This document shows, piece by piece, positions 43,527 to 53,905 of a DNA stretch of 64,000 nucleotides (position 1 is the first letter of the stretch; the number at the start of each line of letters is the position of its first letter). The stretch covers positions 21,080-85,079 of the forward strand of contig CALRSR020000006.1 in the NCBI GenBank assembly GCA_943370825.1, in the 5' to 3' direction. The position numbers and the translations under genes were made by a program. The notes below the pieces were generated by a model. That model ran no database searches and was not told the origin of the DNA. It saw only the letters and a list, made by a program, of their open reading frames with translations. Source of the stretch: Bosea thiooxidans. GTDB lineage: Bacteria; Pseudomonadota; Gammaproteobacteria; Burkholderiales; Burkholderiaceae_C.

Positions 43527-44384
43527 TCAGAGCCGGACCTGGGCTGCCAGACGGGCCAGGTCCGCCCGGGCCAGGTCGTCGGTGTCGGGGCAGCGCTGGA
43601 CGATGGCCCCCAGGTCGCGCATCAGGTCGGTCACCGCATGGCGCAGCGCCAGGGCCTCGGCGGAGCCGCCCAGCCAGCCCTGGGACTGGAAGACCTGGTG
43701 GCCGGTCAGCGCGACCAGCACCCGCAGCAGCAGCGTCACATCGTCGGAGCTGCGGGGGTCGGCCGTGGGGCGCAGCAGGGTTTCGTGCACCTGCTGCAGC
43801 CAGGCCGCCATGGGCGCCGGCGCCGGTGCACACAGCCGCTCTTCCAGCAGGATGGCCTGCACCGACAGCACCTCCTGCCATTCGCGCGGGGAAGGCACGC
43901 GCACCGGATGGGTCAGCCGGTGCACCGTGGTCCGCACCTGCGCATGCACCCGGGACAGACCCATCGCGGCCAGCCGGCCCGGGTCTTCGGTCAGGAAGAA
44001 CGACAGCTGGACAGGTGGGCGACCCTCCAGATGCGCGGCCCAGGTGCGGGTCACATCCGGCGGCAGGGGTTGCTGCACATCGTCGCCCTGGTCGTCCAGC
44101 AGGGCGCCCAGCCCGTTCTGGTAGAGGCGGGCCGCAGTCGCCCAGTGCGGGTCGGAGCCGGGGGCGTCGAGTCCGCTCTGCGGCAACACCGGCAGCACAT
44201 GGCGCGACCGGGTCATGCTGCTGAAGAAGCCCCGGGAGCGGGGACTCGGCGGCTGCAGCGGCTGGAGCGCACGGGACTTTCGCTGCGGGCCGGCACCCGA
44301 ACGGGGGCTGGTCGGCGGGGACGATGCGTCGCTGGCGATGGTGATGACGGGTGGCAGGGATGGAACGGAACAACGGGGAGACAC
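43527..44384 (-). CDS. Orphan hypothetical protein, Ser/Pro-rich N-terminus
   Basis: 285-aa ORF filling the flgB-flgA gap; plausible helical C-terminal half; GTG start uncertain. Confidence 0.6.
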   Translation of the reverse strand: MSPRCSVPSLPPVITIASDASSPPTSPRSGAGPQRKSRALQPLQPPSPRSRGFFSSMTRSRHVLPVLPQSGLDAPGSDPHWATAARLYQNGLGALLDDQGDDVQQPLPPDVTRTWAAHLEGRPPVQLSFFLTEDPGRLAAMGLSRVHAQVRTTVHRLTHPVRVPSPREWQEVLSVQAILLEERLCAPAPAPMAAWLQQVHETLLRPTADPRSSDDVTLLLRVLVALTGHQVFQSQGWLGGSAEALALRHAVTDLMRDLGAIVQRCPDTDDLARADLARLAAQVRL

Positions 44385-44527
44385 GGTGCAGCGGGGGGAT
44401 TGGGTGGATGAAGTGGACGGAACATGCCCGGATCGGACACCCCAGCTTGGTCACCGGACGCGCCATCCGGTCCTGATCAATCCATCAACAATCCAGTACG
44501 CACGGCACGAACAGCGCACCAGACAGG

Positions 44528-45235
44528 TCAGGAGGGTTGAGCACTCAGGCTGCGGCAGCGTGCCGACAGCCGTTCCCGGGTGGCGTCATCCAGATCGGCA
44601 CCCTGGATCAGCTTGAGCAGGCGCGGCAGGATGCGCGAACCGGTTCCGACCAGGATCCAGTTCAGGTAATGCCCGTTGTAGTCGTGGAACGAGAAGGTCT
44701 GCGCCAGGAGGCGCTGCAGCGCCTGCACCTGATCCAGCAGCGCCGTCAGGCCCCCCTCGGTGGCGGGCCGGTGCAAGCGCAGGAACCCCTCGGTCCGGTG
44801 CACTTGGGCCTCCATGTCCGGCAGGGTGGCCGGCATTTCCGAGCGGATCCATTCGGTCTGCAGACGGATGTGTCGCTCGTGATGAACGAAACACGCCTTT
44901 CTGCAAGGCGACAGCAGGTGATTGAGGACCTTCGAAAACCCGGCCTCGCCACCGCAGCGCTCCCGAATCTCGGCCCACACCGCCGAGGTGGGCCGATCCT
45001 GCCTGTCCAGGGCATCGAGCCATCGGATCACCTGCCGGTCCCACAGCAACGCGGTTGGATCCTCGCTCACGGGTGGATCCACCGACGGGACCACCGGGTG
45101 GGGTTCAAGCCCGCTCGCCGGGGCAGGAGCGACCGCAGTCCCGGGCTCGGGCCGGGCCGCAGGCTGGGGTGGAACTGGCGTGGCCTTGAACCCAAGACCC
45201 CGGCGGTGCTGGATGTCGCTTGATGTGCGCTTCAT
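44528..45235 (-). CDS. Orphan hypothetical protein, N-terminus MKRTSS, Pro-rich linker
   Basis: ORF fills the gap; ATG at 45235 gives the same start pattern as the LRR-like orphans. Confidence 0.6.
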   Translation of the reverse strand: MKRTSSDIQHRRGLGFKATPVPPQPAARPEPGTAVAPAPASGLEPHPVVPSVDPPVSEDPTALLWDRQVIRWLDALDRQDRPTSAVWAEIRERCGGEAGFSKVLNHLLSPCRKACFVHHERHIRLQTEWIRSEMPATLPDMEAQVHRTEGFLRLHRPATEGGLTALLDQVQALQRLLAQTFSFHDYNGHYLNWILVGTGSRILPRLLKLIQGADLDDATRERLSARCRSLSAQPS

Positions 45236-45348
45236 GCCGATAGGTAACACCACAGCGGCCAATGTGGCAGAGACAGAAGCAGAACCGGCCGGTGATGGCG
45301 CCGCTTTTCCGGCCTTTGGCCTGCTGCGCGCCCACCTACAGTGGTGGC

Positions 45349-46104
45349 ATGAAAACCGGTCTGCCCTTCACCCACTTCCCTCACGCACGGGCCATGGTGC
45401 TCGCCATCGCGCTGGCCCCCGCCACGGCGGCCCTGGCCCAGTCGAACCCGGCGGCGCCCGGTCCCCACAGCGGGCTGGAGCAGATGGCCAAGGATTTCCT
45501 GCAACCCGCGCTGGGCCAGTCGGTGGGCGGCGAAGCCGGCGTGTCGCTGCGGCCGGAGATCGTCATGGGCCAGCTCGACAGCCGGCTGCGCCTGGCCCCC
45601 TGCGGTGCCATCGAACCCTACCTGCCGCCCGGCACCCGCCTGTGGGGCCGCAGCAAGGTGGGCCTGCGCTGTGTGGATGGCGTGAGCCGCTGGAACGTGT
45701 TCGTGCCGGTCACGGTGAAAGCCTGGGGACCGGCCTGGGTGGTCAAGGCCAACGTGCCGGCCGGCGAAACGCTGAATGCCGACCATGCCGAGCAGGCCGA
45801 GGTGGACTGGGCCGCCCACCCCTCCCCGGTGCTGGCCATGAGCCAGCGCTGGATCGGCCACCAGACCGCCTACCCGCTGCAGGCCGGTCAGCCGCTGCGC
45901 GAGAACATGGTGCGGGCGCCCCAGGCCTTCGAAGCCGGCGCCCAGGTCAAGGTGAGCAGCGGCGGGGCCGGCTTCTCCATCTCGGTCATCGGCCAGGCCG
46001 TGGCCGCCGCCCGGATCGGCGAGCCCGCCCGGGTGCGGCTGCCCAACGGCCGCGTGGTCACCGGCACCGTGCGGCCGGACCAGACGGTCAGCATCGACCT
46101 GTAA
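45349..46104 (+). CDS. flgA: Flagellar P-ring assembly chaperone
   Basis: LDSRLRLAPC, LWGRSKVGLRC, SAF domain, GEPARVRLPNGRVVTG. Confidence 0.93.
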   Translation: MKTGLPFTHFPHARAMVLAIALAPATAALAQSNPAAPGPHSGLEQMAKDFLQPALGQSVGGEAGVSLRPEIVMGQLDSRLRLAPCGAIEPYLPPGTRLWGRSKVGLRCVDGVSRWNVFVPVTVKAWGPAWVVKANVPAGETLNADHAEQAEVDWAAHPSPVLAMSQRWIGHQTAYPLQAGQPLRENMVRAPQAFEAGAQVKVSSGGAGFSISVIGQAVAAARIGEPARVRLPNGRVVTGTVRPDQTVSIDL

Positions 46105-46122
46105 GGCTCAGGGCCCGGCCCG

Positions 46123-47112
46123 TCAGACGGGGGTACCGCTCCAGGCCTCGTAGTTCCTGCGATTGGTCAGCGCCACAGCCCGCAAGTGGTCATGGAGCGG
46201 CACCGATCCTGCCTGAAGGTGTGAAGCAATCACGCTTGAAACATCAGGAAGAAGCCGTTCTGAGCCACCCAGGTCCATACCTCGCCGGATCAACCGCTGG
46301 GCCGATGCCGCCGCCTGGAACCTGGTCCCGAAATCAGCGTTCGGCACCCTCGCCGGCATCTGTGCCGCAATCACAGCCCGGTTGATGTCCGAAACCCGAA
46401 CGGGGTTGGTCTGCAGCGCCCACAAATCGTCATGCATGCCTGCCCAGACGCGGAACCGGTCGGCCATGTCATCCGGATCACCCACGCCCTTTTCAACACA
46501 CCGCGCGTAGATCGAAGAGATCAGCGACAGCGCCTTGGCGCTGTACAGCAACTCCAACGGGCCGGCTGCATCGGGGAAAGCCGTCAGGAAGTTGTGCACC
46601 ACAGTGAGCAGACCGTCGGCCATGCGGGCCGCCTGGTGCAGATCACTGCGGTGATCGCACAGGAGGGCCGACTCGAACTCGACCTTGATGTGCTGCAATG
46701 ACAGCATCAGACCACGCACGCTGGGAGCGACAGAGTAGTACTCCGGGGTGAGGTTGCGCTGGTCATCAATGACGACCATGCCCAAGCGGTCCGCCAGCGG
46801 ATTCAGCAACCGGGCCACTGCAAGCAAGGTTGTCGGGCATTCCAGATCACCCTTGGCCATGATTTGTTGCAGGCTGTCGGATGCAACCAAGAAATCCTGT
46901 CGTTCCATGCTGTTGAGGCATCCACCCCTCACCTGCCGCTCGTAGATGGGCTTTCCGGTGTTCTTCGGACGCCGGACGACATGGCTGCGCAGGTCGTTTT
47001 CCACCCGGGCATTCCCAGGCTGCTGGGTGTTCCGGTGGGGGGTGATGGCAACGGAGCGCCTGACCTTCTGGCGGTCAGCAGGGGGGGAACGGTGAACGGT
47101 ACTGGGGCCCAT
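46123..47112 (-). CDS. Orphan hypothetical protein with atypical codon usage
   Basis: 329-aa ORF (alternative ATG 46908) between flgA and flgM; visibly more A/T in third positions than the flg genes. Confidence 0.55.
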   Translation of the reverse strand: MGPSTVHRSPPADRQKVRRSVAITPHRNTQQPGNARVENDLRSHVVRRPKNTGKPIYERQVRGGCLNSMERQDFLVASDSLQQIMAKGDLECPTTLLAVARLLNPLADRLGMVVIDDQRNLTPEYYSVAPSVRGLMLSLQHIKVEFESALLCDHRSDLHQAARMADGLLTVVHNFLTAFPDAAGPLELLYSAKALSLISSIYARCVEKGVGDPDDMADRFRVWAGMHDDLWALQTNPVRVSDINRAVIAAQMPARVPNADFGTRFQAAASAQRLIRRGMDLGGSERLLPDVSSVIASHLQAGSVPLHDHLRAVALTNRRNYEAWSGTPV

Positions 47113-47309
47113 GGGGACATTCCTTTGAAGTTTTGGTCACATCCAATGTCAAATGACATTGACAACAGCCCTTAGTAATCCAGTCTTCCCGTTTTCTCCG
47201 CGCAAAGCGGCGAGCCGACCATCGGTCCATCTGGCGGTCGATCTGGCCTGTGTTCACCCTCCTTTTCCGGGTTTTGCACCGGCAGCAGTGGCCCTACATT
47301 CGCATCCCA

Positions 47310-47345
47310 GGGCGTCAGACGCCGCCGACCCGGCGTCTGACGCCC
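47310..47345. repeat. Perfect 15-bp inverted repeat
   Basis: GGGCGTCAGACGCCG-ccgacc-CGGCGTCTGACGCCC. Confidence 0.9.
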
Positions 47346-47376
47346 ATCTGCCCCCAAAAAACTTTTCCCCAAGGCC

Positions 47377-47403
47377 TCAAGTTCCCGCCCGGACCGACGA
47401 TAG
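47377..47403 (+). promoter_or_regulatory. Sigma28 (FliA) promoter of flgM
   Basis: TCAAGTTC-N11-GACGATAG versus the consensus TAAAGTTT-N11-GCCGATAA. Confidence 0.8.
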
Positions 47404-47444
47404 TTCCTGCACAGAGCCCCCGAACAGGGGGTGTGGAGCGTGAC

Positions 47445-47780
47445 ATGAAGATCGAATCAACCCCGGATTCCTACATCGGCTCGGTGGCCGGTGGCCCCAA
47501 CAAGGCCACCCCCACCACGGCCGGCGAAGCCGCTGCGGCCGGTGCAGCGTCGTCTGCTGCCGCCGCCAAGCCGCAGGCCGGCGTGCAGGTGACGCTGTCC
47601 AGCGCCACCCAGTCGCTCTCGGCCACCGGCTCGGGCAGCAGCGACGTGTTCAACGCCGAGAAGGTCGAAGCCATGAAAGCGGCCATTGCCAATGGCACCT
47701 TCCAGGTGAACGCCGAGGCCATCGCCGACAAGATGCTGGCCAACGCGGCCGAAATGCTCAACGGCGCACGCGGCGCCTGA
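47445..47780 (+). CDS. flgM: Anti-sigma28 factor
   Basis: VTLSS...DVFNAEKVEAMKAAIANGTFQVNAEAIADKML. Confidence 0.93.
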   Translation: MKIESTPDSYIGSVAGGPNKATPTTAGEAAAAGAASSAAAAKPQAGVQVTLSSATQSLSATGSGSSDVFNAEKVEAMKAAIANGTFQVNAEAIADKMLANAAEMLNGARGA

Positions 47781-47797
47781 TCACAGGAGTGATGTCC

Positions 47798-48157
47798 ATG
47801 CCCACGGTTGCCCTCTCCCACCCCTGGATCCTGCAACTGCAGGGCGCGCTGGACGCACTCGAGAAATCCCTGCTGGCCAGCGACGCCACCGCCGTGGAAG
47901 CCGCCAGCGCCCAGGTGCAGGCCATTCTGAACCACGCCCCCCGCACCGCCGAATTCCAGGCCGAAGGCAGCACCCTGGCCAAGGACCTGCCCGCCGCCGC
48001 CCAGCGCTTTGCCATGCTGCGCCAGGCCGTGCTGCGCGCCCAGGCCCAGAGCCAGCGCGCCCTGGGCAGCCTGATCCCCGAGGCCGTGTCCACCCCGGTC
48101 TACGGCCGCACCGGCCAGGGCAGCGTGAGCTCCCGCCGGGGTTACCTCAGCGCCTGA
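47798..48157 (+). CDS. flgN: FlgN-like flagellar chaperone
   Basis: Helical protein directly after flgM ending in PVYGRTG; AGGAG RBS. Confidence 0.6.
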   Translation: MPTVALSHPWILQLQGALDALEKSLLASDATAVEAASAQVQAILNHAPRTAEFQAEGSTLAKDLPAAAQRFAMLRQAVLRAQAQSQRALGSLIPEAVSTPVYGRTGQGSVSSRRGYLSA

Positions 48158-48165
48158 CAGGCGCG

Positions 48166-48195
48166 TGGACAGCGCCCGGCCGATCCCGGGATAAT
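48166..48195 (+). promoter_or_regulatory. Sigma70-like promoter of the C4-like module
   Basis: TGGACA-N18-GATAAT. Confidence 0.5.
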
Positions 48196-48366
48196 CGCGC
48201 CGGGCCGCAAGGCTCGGTGCTTCAAAACACCCCCCCAGAAGAACAGCGGTGCTACCTCCCCGTCAGAGAGGTTGATCGCGTCCAGACTCTGTGAGCTTCC
48301 CCTGCGGGAGGCTTGAGGGTGCGCCACGACGGCGCATCCGAGCCCGTTGTGCGGGCCACCAGGTTA

Positions 48367-48435
48367 TGGGCGGGATGGGCTTCTCCGCAAGGATGGCCGC
48401 ACGGACTGTTCTCCGTGTTTTGAACATCCCGCCCA
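48367..48435 (+). ncRNA. C4/CI-like phage antisense RNA
   Basis: Closing stem TGGGCGGGATG/CATCCCGCCCA, GCAA-loop hairpin, CACGGA-ctgttc-TCCGTG hairpin, single-stranded GTTTTGAA; complementary targets on both sides. Confidence 0.75.
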
Positions 48436-48492
48436 CCCACTCCGCTTCAAAACGGAACGGGTGGCTTCTCGTCTCGAACAGGAGCCCGAACC

Positions 48493-48588
48493 ATGTCCAA
48501 GGTCACCCACCGCGCCGGCTGCTGCGCCGCTGCGCTCGCACCCACTCACCACCCGTCCCTGCCCCTGCCTTGCAGGAGGCCCGCATGA
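48493..48588 (+). CDS. 31-aa leader ORF in the icd/kil-like position
   Basis: AGGAG RBS inside the antisense target; MSKVTHRAGCC...; stop overlaps the next ATG (ATGA). Confidence 0.45.
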   Translation: MSKVTHRAGCCAAALAPTHHPSLPLPCRRPA

Positions 48589-48800
48589 CCGATGACCAAA
48601 GAAAGGCCTGCCTGGAAGCGGCCTGGGAGATCGAGGCGCTGGCCCTGCTGCTGCCCGAAGTGAAGCTGAGCGAAGAACCCCTGGCCGCGCTGCAGCTGCG
48701 GGGCCTGGCGGCGCGGATGGTCCAGTTGTCGGGGGTGGTGATGGCCGGCCTGCAGAGCGAGGCTGCAGGGCCTGGCGACGCTGTGACCGCGTCGCCGTAA
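48585..48800 (+). CDS. 71-aa hypothetical protein, probably phage-derived
   Basis: AGGAGG RBS; MTDDQRKACLEAAWEIEALALLL...; high-GC codon usage. Confidence 0.65.
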   Translation: MTDDQRKACLEAAWEIEALALLLPEVKLSEEPLAALQLRGLAARMVQLSGVVMAGLQSEAAGPGDAVTASP

Positions 48801-48806
48801 AGAATT

Positions 48807-49523
48807 TCAGTGTTCCCGCAGCTTGGCGCGCAGCCGGGCGATCGACTGGCTGTGCAGCTGGCAGATGCGCGATTCGGTCACGCCGAGCACGGCGGCGATT
48901 TCCTTGAGGTTCATGTCGTGCTCGTAGTACATGGACATGATCTGCTGCTCGCGCTCGGGCAGCATCTTGATGGCGGCCACCAGGGCCATGCGCATGCGCT
49001 GGTCCTGCAGCACGGCCGACGGGTCGACCTCGGTCTCGCCCATGTGGCGGTCCAGAAAACTGTCGTCGTCGTCGGAGCCGCCGCTGATGTCTTCCAGGTA
49101 CACCAGCTGGGTGCCGCGCACCTTGGCCAGCAGGCTCTGGTAGTCGGCCAGGCTCATGCCCATTTCCTGGGCAATCTCGCTTTCCATGGGCGAGCGGTGC
49201 AGCTTCTGCTGCAGCCGGTTGACCGCCTGCTCGATGTCTTTCTGGCTCTTGCGCGAGCCGCGTGACATCCAGTCGCCGTCGCGCAGCTCGTCGAGCATGG
49301 CGCCGCGGATGCGCTGGCTGGCAAAGGTCTCGAACTGCACACCCTGGGTGGGTTCGAAGCGGGCAATGGCCTCGGTCAGGCCGATCATGCCGACCTGGAT
49401 CAGATCGTCCAGCTCCACGCTGGGCGGCAGCTTGGCGATCATGTGGTGGGCCAGGCGGCGCACCAGCGGGGCGTATTGGCGCAGCTGGGCGTCGCGGTTG
49501 AGCGTGCCTTTGGCGGTGTACAT
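48807..49523 (-). CDS. fliA: Flagellar sigma factor sigma28
   Basis: DDLIQVGMIGL, FETFASQRIRGAMLDELR, LGVTESRICQLH. Confidence 0.97.
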   Translation of the reverse strand: MYTAKGTLNRDAQLRQYAPLVRRLAHHMIAKLPPSVELDDLIQVGMIGLTEAIARFEPTQGVQFETFASQRIRGAMLDELRDGDWMSRGSRKSQKDIEQAVNRLQQKLHRSPMESEIAQEMGMSLADYQSLLAKVRGTQLVYLEDISGGSDDDDSFLDRHMGETEVDPSAVLQDQRMRMALVAAIKMLPEREQQIMSMYYEHDMNLKEIAAVLGVTESRICQLHSQSIARLRAKLREH

Positions 49524-49525
49524 CG

Positions 49526-50305
49526 TCAGCTCCAGAGAAAACGGCCGGGTCCGCGTGCGGCGGGCTCTGCGGCGGAGGCATTCGGGTGGGCAGGGCTCGG
49601 TGCCACCTGGGCCACCACCGGAATGCGGGCCACCCAGGATTCGGCGCTCCAGACCGGCCATTCGGTATTCAGGTGGCGCCGGGCGCAGTCGGTCACGGTG
49701 AGGGTGGTGCGTTCGCCTGCAGCGTCCTGCTGCAGCGGGCACAGCACCGGCTGCAGGCCGGCAAAGTGCAGCAGCTTGGCGGCGGCGTAGGTGTCCAGGC
49801 CGGCCTGGGCCGGGCCGAGCACCGGCACCATGGCATGGGCGCCGGTGTCGCACAGCAGCTCGCCCAGGGCGGCAGCCGGCGCGAACAGCAGCACCACCAC
49901 GTCGGCGGCAAACGGGGCCAGCAGCCGGGAGAGCGCGGCGCGCGGGCCGCCGGCACGGGCGGTATCCAGCAGGCGTTCCAGGCCCAGGGCGGCCGGCAGG
50001 ACCAGCCATTCGGCGTCGTCCAGCGGGCGCTCCAGCTGCACCACCGAGGGGTCGATGAGGGCGCGCAGCAGGCCCAGGGGCAGGTCGCGGCTGCCGCCGG
50101 TGCGGTGCAGGGCGGGTTGTTCGGCGGCGGTGGCGTCCAGCACGGCCACGGCATGGCCGGCAGCGCTCAGGCGGGCTGCCACCTCGCACAGCCAGTCGTA
50201 CGACTGGGCCGGTCGGGCGCTGCTGGCCAGCGGCATGAGCAGGGCACTGCCGGTCAGGGCTGCGCCCTGGAGCCCTGCGGCCTGGTGGGCGCCGGGCTCA
50301 AACAC
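49526..50305 (-). CDS. FlhG/FleN-position protein with degenerate P-loop
   Basis: HQAAGL N-terminal motif, VAVLDA, located between flhF and fliA; no GKGGVGK. Confidence 0.6.
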   Translation of the reverse strand: MFEPGAHQAAGLQGAALTGSALLMPLASSARPAQSYDWLCEVAARLSAAGHAVAVLDATAAEQPALHRTGGSRDLPLGLLRALIDPSVVQLERPLDDAEWLVLPAALGLERLLDTARAGGPRAALSRLLAPFAADVVVLLFAPAAALGELLCDTGAHAMVPVLGPAQAGLDTYAAAKLLHFAGLQPVLCPLQQDAAGERTTLTVTDCARRHLNTEWPVWSAESWVARIPVVAQVAPSPAHPNASAAEPAARGPGRFLWS

Positions 50306-51830
50306 GGGCGCCTCCGAGCTGGATGCCGGCAGCGTTGTTGGCCTGGGCGAAGTAGTAACCCAGGTCGTCGGGCACCGGGTCGTGGGCGGCCTTGGTCTGC
50401 GCGCCCATGGACAGGCGCACCAGGGCGGCGGCGTCGGGGTTCTGCCAGTCTTCGGGCACGCGCTGGCCGTTGGCCACGCCGCGCAGCACCGCCTGGTGGC
50501 GGATGAGGGCATCGAGCACCGGGCCGAGCTTGGCGGCTTCGTCCACCTTGGACATGACCACACCGTGCAGGCCGCCCACCTTGAAGGAGGCCATGACCTC
50601 GTCCAGCGTGTCGCCGTGGGCACCGGCGTTGAGCACCATGACCTTCTTGATGCCGGGCTGGTCGAGCACGTCCAGCATGTCCTGGATGCGCTGGTCGCGC
50701 TGGCCCAGGCCGGCGGTGTCGATGATGACCAGGCGCTTGCCCGAGAGCAGGTTGAGCAGGTCCTTGAGCGCGGCGCGGTCGTGGGCCAGGTGGGCCACCA
50801 CGCCGAGCATGCGGCCGTAGGTGCGCAGCTGCTCGTAGCCGGAGACGCGGTAGGTGTCCAGGGTGATCAGGCCCACGCTGCCGGCGCCGTACTGCTTGAC
50901 GCACTGGGCGGCCATCTTGGCGGCGGTGGTGGTCTTGCCCACGCCGGTGGCGCCGATCAGGGCCACCACACCGCCCTCTTCCACCAGGCCGGCGCCGGGG
51001 GCTGCGACCTTGAGGTTGCGGGTCAGCACGTCCATGACCCAGCGCACCGCTTCGGCCGGGCCGGCTTCGGTGGGCACACGCTCCAGCACGGCACGGGCCA
51101 TGGAGGGCGAGTAGCCGGCGCGGATGAGCTTGTGCATCAGCTGCGACTGGATCGGGTTCTGGCGTGAGGATCCGATCCAGGCCAGGGTGTTGAAGCGCTC
51201 CTCGATCATTTCGCGCAGGGCCGAGATCTCCACCGCCATGCGGTTGTTCTCGTCCTTGGGGAAGCGGGCCGGCTCGGAATGGGCCCAGGCGGCTTCTTCG
51301 CGGGTGCGGATGGGTTGCGGGGCGGGCGCCATGGTGATGGGGCCGGCCGGGGCGTTGAAGCGCTGCACCGGGATGGCCGGGGCGGCGGGCTGGGCCACCG
51401 GGCGGGCCACCGGCTGGGCCATCGGCTGCACGGCAGCGCGCTCCACCGGGCGGGCAGCTTCCTGCACCGGGGCGGCGGTGGTGCCCATTTCCTCGCGGCG
51501 CTTGCGCAGCATGCGTTCGCGCACATAGTCCTGGAAGGACAGGGTGCTCATGGCCAGGGCTTCGGTGTCGCTCTCCACCGACTGGCTGACGGGGGCGGCG
51601 CTGCGGGCGGCCGGCTGGGCCAGGGGCTGTGCCGCCGGCTGCGCTGCAGGCTGGGGCAGGCCACGGGCCGCACCGGTGAGGCTGGCCAGGCTTTCTTCGG
51701 CGGCAGCCATCACTTCAAAACCCTCGGCGGTGTTGCGGGAGGACAGGATCACCGCGCTGTCGCCCAGGGACCGGCGGACCTTGGACATGGCTTCACGCGA
51801 GGTGGGGGCAAGGAATCGCTGGATGTTCAT
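50298..51830 (-). CDS. flhF: Flagellar SRP-like GTPase
   Basis: GATGVGKTTTAAK, DTYR, DTAG, SKVDEA, NGQRVPED. Confidence 0.96.
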   Translation of the reverse strand: MNIQRFLAPTSREAMSKVRRSLGDSAVILSSRNTAEGFEVMAAAEESLASLTGAARGLPQPAAQPAAQPLAQPAARSAAPVSQSVESDTEALAMSTLSFQDYVRERMLRKRREEMGTTAAPVQEAARPVERAAVQPMAQPVARPVAQPAAPAIPVQRFNAPAGPITMAPAPQPIRTREEAAWAHSEPARFPKDENNRMAVEISALREMIEERFNTLAWIGSSRQNPIQSQLMHKLIRAGYSPSMARAVLERVPTEAGPAEAVRWVMDVLTRNLKVAAPGAGLVEEGGVVALIGATGVGKTTTAAKMAAQCVKQYGAGSVGLITLDTYRVSGYEQLRTYGRMLGVVAHLAHDRAALKDLLNLLSGKRLVIIDTAGLGQRDQRIQDMLDVLDQPGIKKVMVLNAGAHGDTLDEVMASFKVGGLHGVVMSKVDEAAKLGPVLDALIRHQAVLRGVANGQRVPEDWQNPDAAALVRLSMGAQTKAAHDPVPDDLGYYFAQANNAAGIQLGGARV

Positions 51831-53905
51831 GCTGCAAGCTCTCCAAGAATCGGGCCGATGCGGATCAGGTGGGTTTCAGGGATTTCGCCGTGGGCGAGCA
51901 CCTGCAGGCGCGGGGCTGCGCGGCGCAGCAGGCGGGCCATGGCGGTGCGGATGGCGTCGGGCACCAGCAGGCAGGCGGGCACGCCTTTTTCTTCCTGCCG
52001 GATGGCGATGTCGGTGGCGGATTTGCTCAGCATCTCGGCCACACCGGGGTCGAGCGCGGCGCCGCCCTGGCCGGTGAGGGCCTGCATCAGCAGGCGCTCC
52101 AGGCCGGGCTCGATGGCGATCACTTCGAGTTCCTTCACCGGGCCGTAGATCTGCTGGACGATGGCCGGGGCCAGGGCCAGGCGCACGCGGCGGGCCAGTT
52201 CGGCCGGGTCGGTGACGCTGGGGGCGTGTTCGGCAATCGCCTCGATGATGGTGCGGATGTCGCGCACATGCACACCTTCTTCCAGCAGCAGCTGCAGGAC
52301 TTTCTGGAAGGTGGCGACCGGGATCATTTTGGGGACGACTTCTTCGATCAGCTTGGGGGCCAGGCGGGTCACGTGTTCGACCAGGTCCTGGGTCTCGGTC
52401 CGGCTGAGCAATCGCGCGGCCTGGACTTGCATCAAGTGTGAGAGATGGGTGGCCAGCACGGTCTCGGAATCAACGACCGTAAAACCGGCCATTTGCGCGC
52501 TCTCCTTCTGCTTCTCGTCGATCCAGTGCGCGGGCAGGCCGAAAGCGGGGTCGGTGGTGGGGGTGCCGATCAGCGGGGTGCCGATGCCACCCGGATCGAT
52601 GGCCAGGAACATGCCGGGGAACACCTCGCCCTGGCCCACCACCACGCCACGCAGGGTGATGCGGTAGGCGCTGGGGTGCAGTTCCAGGTTGTCGCGCACA
52701 TGGACCGGCGGGGGGAGGAAGCCCACGTCCTGGGCGAACTTCTTGCGCACGCCCTTGATGCGGGTGAGCAGGTCGCCCGAGCGGGTCTTGTCCACCAGGG
52801 CGATCAGGCGGTAGCCCAGCTCCAGGCCCAGCAGGTCGATGGGCTGCAGGTCGTCCCAGCTGGCTTCGCCATCGGCGGCCGGGGCGGCCGGGGCTTCTTC
52901 GGCCACCGGCTTGAGCGACTGCTGGTGGCGCCACCAGGCCAGGCCGCCGGCCAGGGCGGCAAAGCCCAGGAAAAACACATGCGGCATGCCGGGAATCACA
53001 CCCAGCAGGAACAGCACGCCGGCGGTGACACCCAGCACGCGGGTGGACAGGAACATCTGCTCCACCACCTGGGCGCCCAGGTCTTCGTCCTTGCCCACCC
53101 GCGAGACCACCATGGCGGCGGCCACCGAGATCAGCAGCGAGGGGATCTGCGCCACCAGGGCATCGCCCACGGCCAGCAGGATGTAGCTGTCGGTGGCCTG
53201 TGAGGCCGACAGACCGTGCTGCACCATGCCGATGATCAGGCCGCCGATGATGGTGATGATCAGGATCAGGATGCCGGCAATGGCGTCGCCACGCACGAAC
53301 TTGGAGGCACCGTCCATGGAGCCGAAGAATTCGGCTTCCTCGGCCACCTCAGCGCGGCGGCGCTTGGCCTCCTTCTCGTCGATCAGGCCGGCGCCCAGGT
53401 CGGCGTCGATGGCCATCTGCTTGCCGGGCATGGCGTCCAGGGTGAAGCGGGCCGACACCTCGGCGATGCGCTCCGAACCCTTGGTGACCACCACGAAGTT
53501 GATCACCACCAGGATGACGAACACCACAAAGCCGACCGCAAAGTTGCCCCCGATGAGGAAGTGGCCGAAGGCCTCGATCACCTGGCCGGCCGCGCCCGGG
53601 CCGGTGTGGCCTTCGAGCAGCACCACCCGGGTGGAGGCCACGTTGAGCGACAGGCGCAGCAGCGTGGTGAGCAGCAGGACGGTGGGAAACACCGAGAAGT
53701 CCAGCGGCCGCTTCATGTAGGCGGCCACCGTCATCACGATGAGGGCCAGCGCGATGTTGAGGGTGAAGAAGGTGTCCAGCAGCCAGGGCGGCAGGGGCAG
53801 CACCATCATGGAGAGGATGGTGATCACCAGCATGGGGGCGGCCAGGCCACCGGCCCAGCCGGCGTTGCGGCGGAACCATTGCTGCAGGGGCTCGAGAGCG
53901 TTCAT
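51827..53905 (-). CDS. flhA: Flagellar export gate protein
   Basis: RFTLDAMPGKQMAIDADL, FFGSMDGASKFVRGDAIAG. Confidence 0.98.
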   Translation of the reverse strand: MNALEPLQQWFRRNAGWAGGLAAPMLVITILSMMVLPLPPWLLDTFFTLNIALALIVMTVAAYMKRPLDFSVFPTVLLLTTLLRLSLNVASTRVVLLEGHTGPGAAGQVIEAFGHFLIGGNFAVGFVVFVILVVINFVVVTKGSERIAEVSARFTLDAMPGKQMAIDADLGAGLIDEKEAKRRRAEVAEEAEFFGSMDGASKFVRGDAIAGILILIITIIGGLIIGMVQHGLSASQATDSYILLAVGDALVAQIPSLLISVAAAMVVSRVGKDEDLGAQVVEQMFLSTRVLGVTAGVLFLLGVIPGMPHVFFLGFAALAGGLAWWRHQQSLKPVAEEAPAAPAADGEASWDDLQPIDLLGLELGYRLIALVDKTRSGDLLTRIKGVRKKFAQDVGFLPPPVHVRDNLELHPSAYRITLRGVVVGQGEVFPGMFLAIDPGGIGTPLIGTPTTDPAFGLPAHWIDEKQKESAQMAGFTVVDSETVLATHLSHLMQVQAARLLSRTETQDLVEHVTRLAPKLIEEVVPKMIPVATFQKVLQLLLEEGVHVRDIRTIIEAIAEHAPSVTDPAELARRVRLALAPAIVQQIYGPVKELEVIAIEPGLERLLMQALTGQGGAALDPGVAEMLSKSATDIAIRQEEKGVPACLLVPDAIRTAMARLLRRAAPRLQVLAHGEIPETHLIRIGPILGELAA

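Follow-up and report, generated by a model that had tools for sequence, protein, structure and literature searches.

A stand-alone RNA module of the C4/sRNA-Xcc1 class next to fliA: a putative antisense gate for a small helical protein

Antisense immunity of the C4/CI type is usually seen as a device of phages and satellite phages. P1, P7, N15 and P4 possess structurally similar RNA immunity systems, and the immunity of P4 is RNA-based, with seqA and CI, the RNA being processed from the leader of the operon that it controls (PMC3632133). The small RNA (sRNA) sRNA-Xcc1 is presented in the literature as a trans-acting sRNA controlled by HrpG/HrpX (PMC2996969; Chen et al. 2011 as cited in PMC12189769), and it is still annotated as a trans-acting, virulence-linked sRNA. 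In integron cassettes of Xanthomonas, symE follows it closely in the same orientation (bioRxiv 10.1101/2025.06.18.660453), and in Xylella annotations of C4, IsrK and sRNA-Xcc1 stand side by side or in tandem (PMC12189769). Here we analyzed a module of this class in a stretch of 64,000 nucleotides (nt) from the Bosea thiooxidans assembly GCA_943370825.1 (contig CALRSR020000006.1, positions 21,080 to 85,079 of the forward strand), hereafter the window. The module spans 48166-48800 (651 bp as a genome query) and consists, in this order and on the + strand, of a promoter, two boxes, an RNA, the same two boxes, an open reading frame (ORF) of 31 amino acids (aa) and an ORF of 71 aa, the latter termed the cargo. 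We consider it likely that the module is a self-contained antisense gate of the P1 C4/P4 CI/sRNA-Xcc1 class, reduced from an island operon and kept by selection, the protein of which may be harmful when unrepressed. The kind of switch is known; its stand-alone, multi-copy form and its protein are not described.

In the annotated P1 record, box a1 (positions 48255-61 of that record) and box b1 (48269-76) precede the 77-nt c4 RNA (48343-48419). Box a2 begins 4 nt after c4, and b2 follows 29 nt after a2, on the ribosome-binding site (RBS) of icd, a gene of 73 aa that ant1 overlaps by 4 nt. The linker of the P1 RNA, CUGUCAA, is a' and the loop of its hairpin 2, CACUAAC, is b'; we use this nomenclature throughout (linker, a'; hairpin-2 loop, b'). 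Citron and Schuster reportedly found in 1990 that the heteroimmune phages P1 and P7 differ by co-variation of RNA and boxes (as cited in PMC3632133), and the work of Hartmann et al. in 1995 (as cited in PMC4919922) is said to provide the P1/P7 precedent for maturation of C4 RNA by RNase P. An earlier note on the window, made from the letters alone, had likened the module to P1 c4-icd-ant and P4 CI, and the annotated P1 record indeed matches it in order, topology, spacing and ATGA coupling.

The antisense RNA and its target boxes

The RNA, assigned to the C4/sRNA-Xcc1 class, occupies 48365-48438 (+) and scores 94.9 bits with the family covariance model; the model was built from four paralogs of the same genome (3.45 Mb in 63 contigs). 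The segment folds with -43.1 kcal/mol (z -4.5), and none of 200 shuffles was as stable. The structure is a three-way junction with an 11-bp closing stem (48367-77/48425-35), a hairpin 1 with a GCAA loop and a hairpin 2 (48399-48418) that presents b', CUGUUC, in its loop at 48406-11. The linker a', GUUUUGAA (GTTTTGAA in DNA), is single-stranded at 48417-24, and the tail reads CACCC. The cloverleaf of the earlier note thus has three arms at its junction instead of four; ARAGORN calls no tRNA or tmRNA, and such an identity was rejected. In the alignment of 41 copies, 93% of the cells are paired and 17 of 23 pairs show compensatory changes, values that 0/500 shuffles reached, while slid structures pair 39-50%. 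A closing stem of 10-11 bp and the invariant (C)ACC tail are present in 41/41 copies.

The two single-stranded segments of the RNA find exact complements of 6-10 nt at all four boxes. Upstream, box a1 (TTCAAAACAC, 48221-48230, +) is complementary to the linker taken as GUGUUUUGAA, and box b1 (AGAACAG, 48240-48246, +) to the hairpin-2 loop taken as CUGUUCU. Downstream, box a2 (TTCAAAAC, 48446-48453, +) forms the loop of a CCG/CGG hairpin nested in CCACCC/GGGUGG. Box b2 (GAACAG, 48476-81) runs over the Shine-Dalgarno (SD) sequence AGGAG (48480-84), the two covering 48476-48484 (+) in the predicted loop of a CUC-N6-GAG fold; it lies 12 nt before the ATG of the first ORF (48493). Complementarity of a' and b' to a1 b1 and to a2 b2 on the same transcript, which marks a gate of the C4/CI class, is therefore present, and so is its second mark, a distal downstream box on the RBS of the first gated ORF, found likewise in 28/34 loci. 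In the whole genome the word TTCAAAAC-N8-45-GAACAG occurs at the module's own two sites only. Promoter, both target pairs, RNA, RBS overlap and the two coupled ORFs were all found where the earlier note had placed them.

Pairing was examined at 34 loci by checking every RNA against the flanking sequence of its own locus and of other loci, a complement of at least 6 nt being scored. For the linker, 34/34 loci have an upstream complement and 28/34 have one at +8 to +10 downstream; for the loop, the counts are 31/34 upstream and 28/34 at +36 to +41 downstream, the latter always abutting GGAG. Both loop sites were matched at 25 of the 34 own loci, compared with 10 of 1112 cross-locus combinations, a pattern beyond chance in which the boxes track the RNA of their locus. 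The loci comprise 29 distinct loops and 13 distinct linkers. Because the covariation is three-way and extends over 41 copies, it shows, at the level of sequence, that RNA-box pairing is selected. Among the partners, conservation is highest for the upstream boxes (34/34 and 31/34; downstream boxes, 28/34), and in the minimum-energy fold of the whole leader a1 and b1 pair with a' and b' in cis. They may control maturation, or attenuation at the hairpin that follows b1.

An ortholog in another assembly (locus L068) also abuts fliA, carries a cargo core that is 92% identical and retains the same 31-aa ORF with its ATGA overlap. Its RNA has a CUCUUC loop and a UUUUCAA linker, and all four boxes have changed to match (GAAGAG, TTGAAAAC).

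Five RNA copies were found in the genome of the window, among the 41 related copies. Besides the window copy, on contig C6, full modules were seen on contigs C11 and C15; C1 has a copy with another ORF, C26 a decayed copy and C11 also an orphan RNA. Loop CUGUUC and box GAACAG, with linker GUUUUGAA and box TTCAAAAC, make the specificity of the window copy; the corresponding elements are CUGUUAG and CTAACAG with GUUCUUAA and TTAAGAAC on C11, CUGGUC and GACCAG with UUACGA and TCGTAA on C15, and CUGUAU and TACAGA with GUGUUUGAA and TTCAAACAC on C1. No two copies of the same genome share both loop and linker (5/5 and 6/6 different in genomes G000 and G062). The five RNA copies sit among housekeeping genes: in the flagellar cluster, after aspartokinase and a tRNA, after a DUF1501-like pair, near ABC transporter genes and after a sensor kinase. 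The family is patchy within Comamonadaceae, with copies in 12/101 genomes of the genus Hydrogenophaga and 8/151 genus representatives of the family (1-6 copies each); in the rest of the order, a copy was found in 1 of ~148 genomes.

The orphan RNA (C11:54179-54249, -) has a CUUGAU loop and a UGACUAU linker, has no cargo and finds no matching boxes anywhere in the genome. It lies ~100 nt downstream of a tRNA gene (in locus L029, RNA at 1812-1882 and tRNA at 1954-2043), and the promoter of a second, complete module comes directly after it. The same RNA type heads a full module at the same tRNA in two other Hydrogenophaga genomes (loci L060 and L063). In an ortholog of the C15 module (locus L047), a DUF3800-VI RNA motif (RF02915, 44 bits) was seen at 1993-2046, ~420 nt downstream of the RNA.

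The promoter is of the sigma-70 type (TGGACA-18 nt-GATAAT, 48166-48195, +) and is the sole such site in the 1.4 kb from 47700 to 49100, where shuffled sequence of that length yields a mean of 0.1. All Hydrogenophaga copies have a -10 element (CATAAT/GATAAT) in this position, 7-9 nt upstream of the 5' hairpin, and other genera have variants of the CACAAT/TATAGT type there; the -35 hexamer falls within DNA common to a relative without the module. In the minimum-energy fold, the leader starts with a GNRA-capped hairpin (CGCCGGGCC-GCAA-GGCUCGGUG, 48198-48219, +), which shows compensatory changes in paralogs (GGCC-GCAA-GGCC, ACCC-GAAA-GGGU). The earlier note had placed the first box in a GGTG/CACC helix; because this stronger, conserved hairpin competes for the same GGTG, box a1 is probably single-stranded in the folding model. 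Between b1 and the RNA, a structured spacer of ~110 nt (48254-48360, +) is predicted to form a hairpin ACCUC...GAGGU right after b1, followed by a short U/C tract and three GC hairpins. The first hairpin is kept in paralogs and the remainder varies in length. An attenuator role for this hairpin may be considered.

The cargo protein and its relatives in islands

The first ORF (ORF1; 48493-48588, +; MSKVTHRAGCC...) is a short leader ORF of 31 aa, and an ORF of the same length and end is present in L068. The cargo, ORF2 (48585-48800, +), has an AGGAGG of its own at 48574-79 and overlaps ORF1 through ATGA. The C11, C15 and C26 types encode the cargo as one ORF of 93-106 aa beginning at the gated RBS; the window copy and its ortholog have the 31-aa ORF1 in front of it. 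The split into 31 and 71 aa was not taken as a fresh frameshift, since the ortholog retains both ORFs and the ATGA overlap. A 169-aa ORF at 48291-48800, in the frame of ORF2, was rejected as a high-GC artefact spanning the RNA and boxes. Across all module types, DNA-level conservation covers the leader and the first ~15 codons, and ORF1 looks like the truncated start of the usual first gene; its alignment by hhalign with the first-gene proteins that we call family B is suggestive (E 0.057).

The core of the cargo reads R-x-ACLEAAWEIEALA-x-LLP ... LQLRG-x-A-x-RL ... GVVMSGLDD. Over this core, the ratio of nonsynonymous to synonymous substitution rates (dN/dS) was 0-0.24 in 19 ortholog pairs and 0.18 between the window copy and its ortholog. 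AlphaFold modelled ORF2 as a two-helix hairpin (helices 3-25 and 33-60) with a predicted local distance difference test (pLDDT) score of 87, and a profile search returned 382 cluster representatives at E ≤ 1e-3, all unnamed. Because of this low dN/dS, this confident model and these representatives, the cargo, by these computed measures, is a real protein under purifying selection. In a sample of 400 genomes from the class, no cargo homologue turned up outside its own genome (0/400). Alignment by hhalign was negative with P1 Icd (probability 0.2) and with the family B proteins, and blastn of the leader gave no match in phage and plasmid collections.

Relatives of the cargo were found behind the same RNA in mobile islands. 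In at least nine metagenomic loci, homologs that are 38-46% identical follow the RNA on the same strand at 380-1700 nt. In six loci (L096, L099, L107, L111, L114 and L115), the int-alpA RNA motif (RF02996) comes 90-500 nt downstream of the cargo-family gene, and it may mark where the RNA-gated early operon ends in these islands. The order in L099 is RNA, family B gene (MTT..LASRRAAP...), 100-aa ORF, cargo homolog, 86-aa ORF, int-alpA RNA, 332-aa ORF and AlpA, the cargo homolog being the third gene of the RNA-gated operon. Copies of the family B type, in Hydrogenophaga and in other genera, adjoin tyrosine integrase, HTH_17/AlpA-like genes and CHC2 primase fingers, and one copy in another family of the order stands upstream of a KilA-N gene. 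Because its homologs sit in such operons, the window cassette, as far as gene neighbourhoods tell, arose by reduction from the early operon that the RNA gates in AlpA/integrase/primase (P4-like) islands, which occur within the same bacterial family.

Two copies that have lost the RNA bear on the effect of the cargo. In the C26 copy (C26:45068-45421, -), a single deletion of ~190 bp removed the RNA together with a2 and b2, and the cargo carries an in-frame TAG. A copy in a second Hydrogenophaga genome (L075, 1300-1720) has the same deletion junction and different lesions, namely a frameshift, an altered -10 (CAAGAT) and an altered SD (ACGGAG). The RNA is retained ~56 nt upstream in 9/9 intact genes of this subtype examined. 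That both RNA-less copies are broken and all nine intact ones keep their RNA hints that the unrepressed cargo may be harmful.

Intact modules of the C26 type at L064 and L065, on NCBI contigs of metagenome-assembled genomes, adjoin an AAA_15/AAA_21 ATPase gene, and in L065 a PemK-family toxin gene lies on the other side; this setting is a neighbourhood like those of defence and toxin-antitoxin (TA) systems.

Genomic setting, proposed mechanism and rival readings

The module lies among flagellar genes. Upstream is flgM (PF04316); fliA, identified by its Sigma70 r2, r3 and r4 domains, is convergent, and flhF/flhA are also among the neighbours. As the earlier note had said, no phage gene is near, and no integrase was found near the module. 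Its statement that the transcript converges on fliA agrees with the reading of the sequence, the stops of ORF2 (48800) and fliA (48807) being 6 nt apart. This spacing leaves no room for attC, and for that reason and the lack of a nearby integrase an origin as an integron cassette was rejected. No terminator lies between the cargo ORF and fliA in either strain with the module at this place (window 48800-48807; L068 2716-2723), and read-through past the cargo ORF would run antisense to the 3' end of fliA. After flgM, a 122-aa ORF (47789-48157) takes the place of flgN; it has a weak DUF2937 match alone, with no FlgN match in Pfam or NCBIfam, and its flgN label rests on position. Across the genus the flgN-fliA gap ranges from 0.45 to 11 kb. 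In the closest relative (G014, locus L017; fliA 96% identical), an unrelated ORF of ~190 aa (MNPIGNSIRRMARSL...) occupies the site and no RNA module is present. Because the gap varies in size and its content differs between species, the site is a replacement hot spot within the flagellar cluster. No link to flagellar genes was found for the cargo or for the other four genomic copies.

In the mechanism that we propose, the module's own promoter would make one transcript, and a 70-nt three-way-junction RNA would be cut from its leader. RNase P is the likely nuclease at the 5' end, by analogy with C4 of P1 and P7, and the invariant stem and ACC tail are consistent with this. The linker GUUUUGAA and the loop CUGUUC would then pair with the two boxes just downstream; as b2 covers the RBS of ORF1, translation of ORF1 and of the ATGA-coupled ORF2 would be turned off. 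The upstream boxes would bind the same RNA and serve as a decoy or for autoregulation or attenuation. Of the island operon, the cassette would have kept the RNA and one conserved small helical protein, and it would be maintained together with four paralogs of different specificity. Its persistence would most likely come from the harm done by unrepressed protein, making it the toxin-antitoxin-like 'last survivor' of a decayed island. The module may have the toxin or anti-phage role that the earlier note had raised.

Several observations weigh against this reading. The RNA stays below the Rfam thresholds: RF01695 (C4), which gives 68.8 bits on P1 c4, has a cut-off of 45 bits, and its best match in the genome, elsewhere than the module, reaches 15.3 bits. 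sRNA-Xcc1 (RF02221) scores 33.4 bits on the module (E 0.0078, model positions 1-87), below its cut-off of 53 bits, as do the other copies (29.7-39 bits). The check by the C4 and c4-a1b1 models suggested in the earlier note thus gave no match; in a search of 44000-53000 at E ≤ 10, no C4, IsrK or c4-a1b1 appeared and sRNA-Xcc1 alone matched the module. Conversely, the covariance model from the paralogs finds P1 c4 as its best P1 match with a non-significant 7.3 bits, so homology with C4 rests on architecture. From the Rfam scores, we judge that the RNA is a divergent branch of the C4/sRNA-Xcc1 class. The cargo has no match in Pfam, PHROG, NCBIfam or PADLOC; tblastn was empty in the phage (50,697 records) and plasmid collections, IMG/VR gave no match, and Foldseek against PDB and BFVD returned generic helical hairpins only (E > 1). 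The protein looks soluble and acidic/helical (rich in E, R and D), with no membrane helix, unlike classic type I toxins, and it resembles no toxin, defence or phage protein in these searches. The subtype on contig C1 and its relatives have upstream boxes only, so that masking of the RBS cannot be the full mechanism within the family. Solo copies have reached non-tRNA sites with no integrase of their own to account for it. Finally, the argument for toxicity draws on two related decayed copies, which neutral decay could also have produced.

It is improbable that the module is a functionless relic in neutral drift between flgN and fliA, the last fragment of a decayed integrative island or of a prophage immunity region. 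The earlier note had left open whether it was a relic or a domesticated module; the cassette derives from the early operon of AlpA/primase islands, but its cargo is under purifying selection. Descent from island operons, the resemblance of ORF1 to a truncated first gene, the variable gap (0.45-11 kb) that holds an unrelated ORF in the closest relative, and the existence of decayed copies (C26, L075 and the C11 orphan RNA by the tRNA) would all suit such a drift. Neutral decay would not, however, have changed the RNA and all four boxes together, as happened in L068, nor kept the cargo at a dN/dS of 0.18 with respect to the ortholog (0-0.24 overall); promoter, SD and both ORFs are intact here, whereas truly decayed copies show a stop, a frameshift or a lost -10. 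Another view would make the RNA a trans-acting sRNA with its real targets elsewhere, the complementarity of the flanks being secondary. sRNA-Xcc1, the only Rfam match, is called trans-acting in the literature, but the Xanthomonas RNA too sits upstream of symE on the same strand (bioRxiv 10.1101/2025.06.18.660453). We regard a trans-acting role as very improbable: in 3.45 Mb, the bipartite target is confined to the two sites of the module itself, and a conserved trans target would not have allowed the 29 variants in which loop and linker change along with the flanks.

The gate could also be mainly transcriptional, the RNA and the upstream boxes causing premature termination at the hairpin after b1, as reported for seqA/seqC and CI of P4, with RBS masking as an auxiliary and read-through into fliA as what matters. 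The better conservation of the upstream boxes and the subtype that has no others are in keeping with this, as are the conserved hairpin and short U/C tract after b1, the 6-nt distance to the fliA stop without a terminator (likewise in the ortholog) and the RNA-based immunity of the P4 type with seqA/CI (PMC3632133). We nevertheless find it unlikely, as the hairpin has no proper U-run and was not among the called terminators, b2 lies exactly over the SD here as in P1, and neither the cargo nor any of the other four copies shows a tie to flagellar genes.

If the antisense gate proposed here is correct, the module is the barest form of the design, with a promoter, decoy boxes, an RNA, target boxes and one tiny protein, free of phage, under selection and five-fold in one genome. 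The at least 29 natural specificity variants make a library of orthogonal RNA/target pairs from which it may be learned how two short kissing contacts set specificity, and the module makes a case for re-reading sRNA-Xcc1-like RNAs as gates of cis modules. It also brings forward a widespread, unnamed family of small proteins with its 382 cluster representatives. Should the protein be toxic, there would be a new route from an island immunity module to a chromosomal addiction or defence module. A bolder version, possible but tentative, is a mobile RNA-gated toxin-antitoxin or abortive-infection module in which the leader-released C4-type RNA would be the antitoxin, the two-box code of loop and linker would provide dozens of orthogonal specificities and so let several copies coexist in one chromosome, and the ACLEAAWE-type two-helix protein would be a new effector from P4-like islands, freed on loss of the RNA supply, for example by phage transcription shut-off.

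Comparison with known systems

With type I and type III TA systems, the module shares a compact make-up of an RNA and a small protein, complete from promoter to stop, intergenic, patchy and present in several orthogonal copies, and its RNA-less copies have broken protein genes. It differs in that the RNA comes from upstream on the same strand and from the same transcript, being neither antisense-overlapping as in type I nor a protein-binding repeat as in type III, and in that the modelled cargo has no membrane helix or known toxin fold. The small hydrophobic, membrane-active toxin with an overlapping or diverging antisense RNA that characterizes type I is therefore not what is found here.

P4 (CI, seqA/seqB/seqC and kil) and the AlpA/primase islands are approached through full-length relatives of the cassette, in which the same kind of RNA gates strings of small ORFs in the company of integrase, AlpA, the int-alpA motif and CHC2 primase. 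The window copy, in contrast, has lost all island genes but one small ORF.

Among the Rfam families, sRNA-Xcc1 alone gives an end-to-end alignment; the helices are the same, the hairpin-2 loop is CU-rich, the linker reads UUUUGA and the tail CACCC. Like the module, it is also met outside phages, where a small gene follows it immediately in the same orientation, and it can be present in multiple or tandem copies. The match stays below the cut-off, hairpin 1 is much shorter in the module, the cargo is not SymE, and there is no attC or integron context.

From the immI region of P1 and P7, the module is set apart by the missing RF01695 match, by a GNRA loop in hairpin 1 where P1 has UUCG, by a cargo unrelated to Icd/Ant, by the lack of a C1 operator and of a surrounding phage, and by its five orthogonal chromosomal copies; icd and ant in a phage genome, which define a P1-type immI operon, are not part of the window cassette. 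The element would work like C4 but is not a member of Rfam C4. The parts stand in the same order on one strand (a1 b1, RNA, a2 b2, ORFs), and the RNA of 70-77 nt has the same closing stem, tetraloop hairpin and second hairpin, whose b' loop is directed to the RBS box, as well as a linker a' directed to the RNA-proximal box and a 3' tail of the CCACC type. The distance from a2 to b2 is ~30 nt in both, b2 precedes the start codon by 11-12 nt, the first ORF is coupled to the next through ATGA, and specificity is altered by co-varying RNA and boxes, as between P1 and P7.

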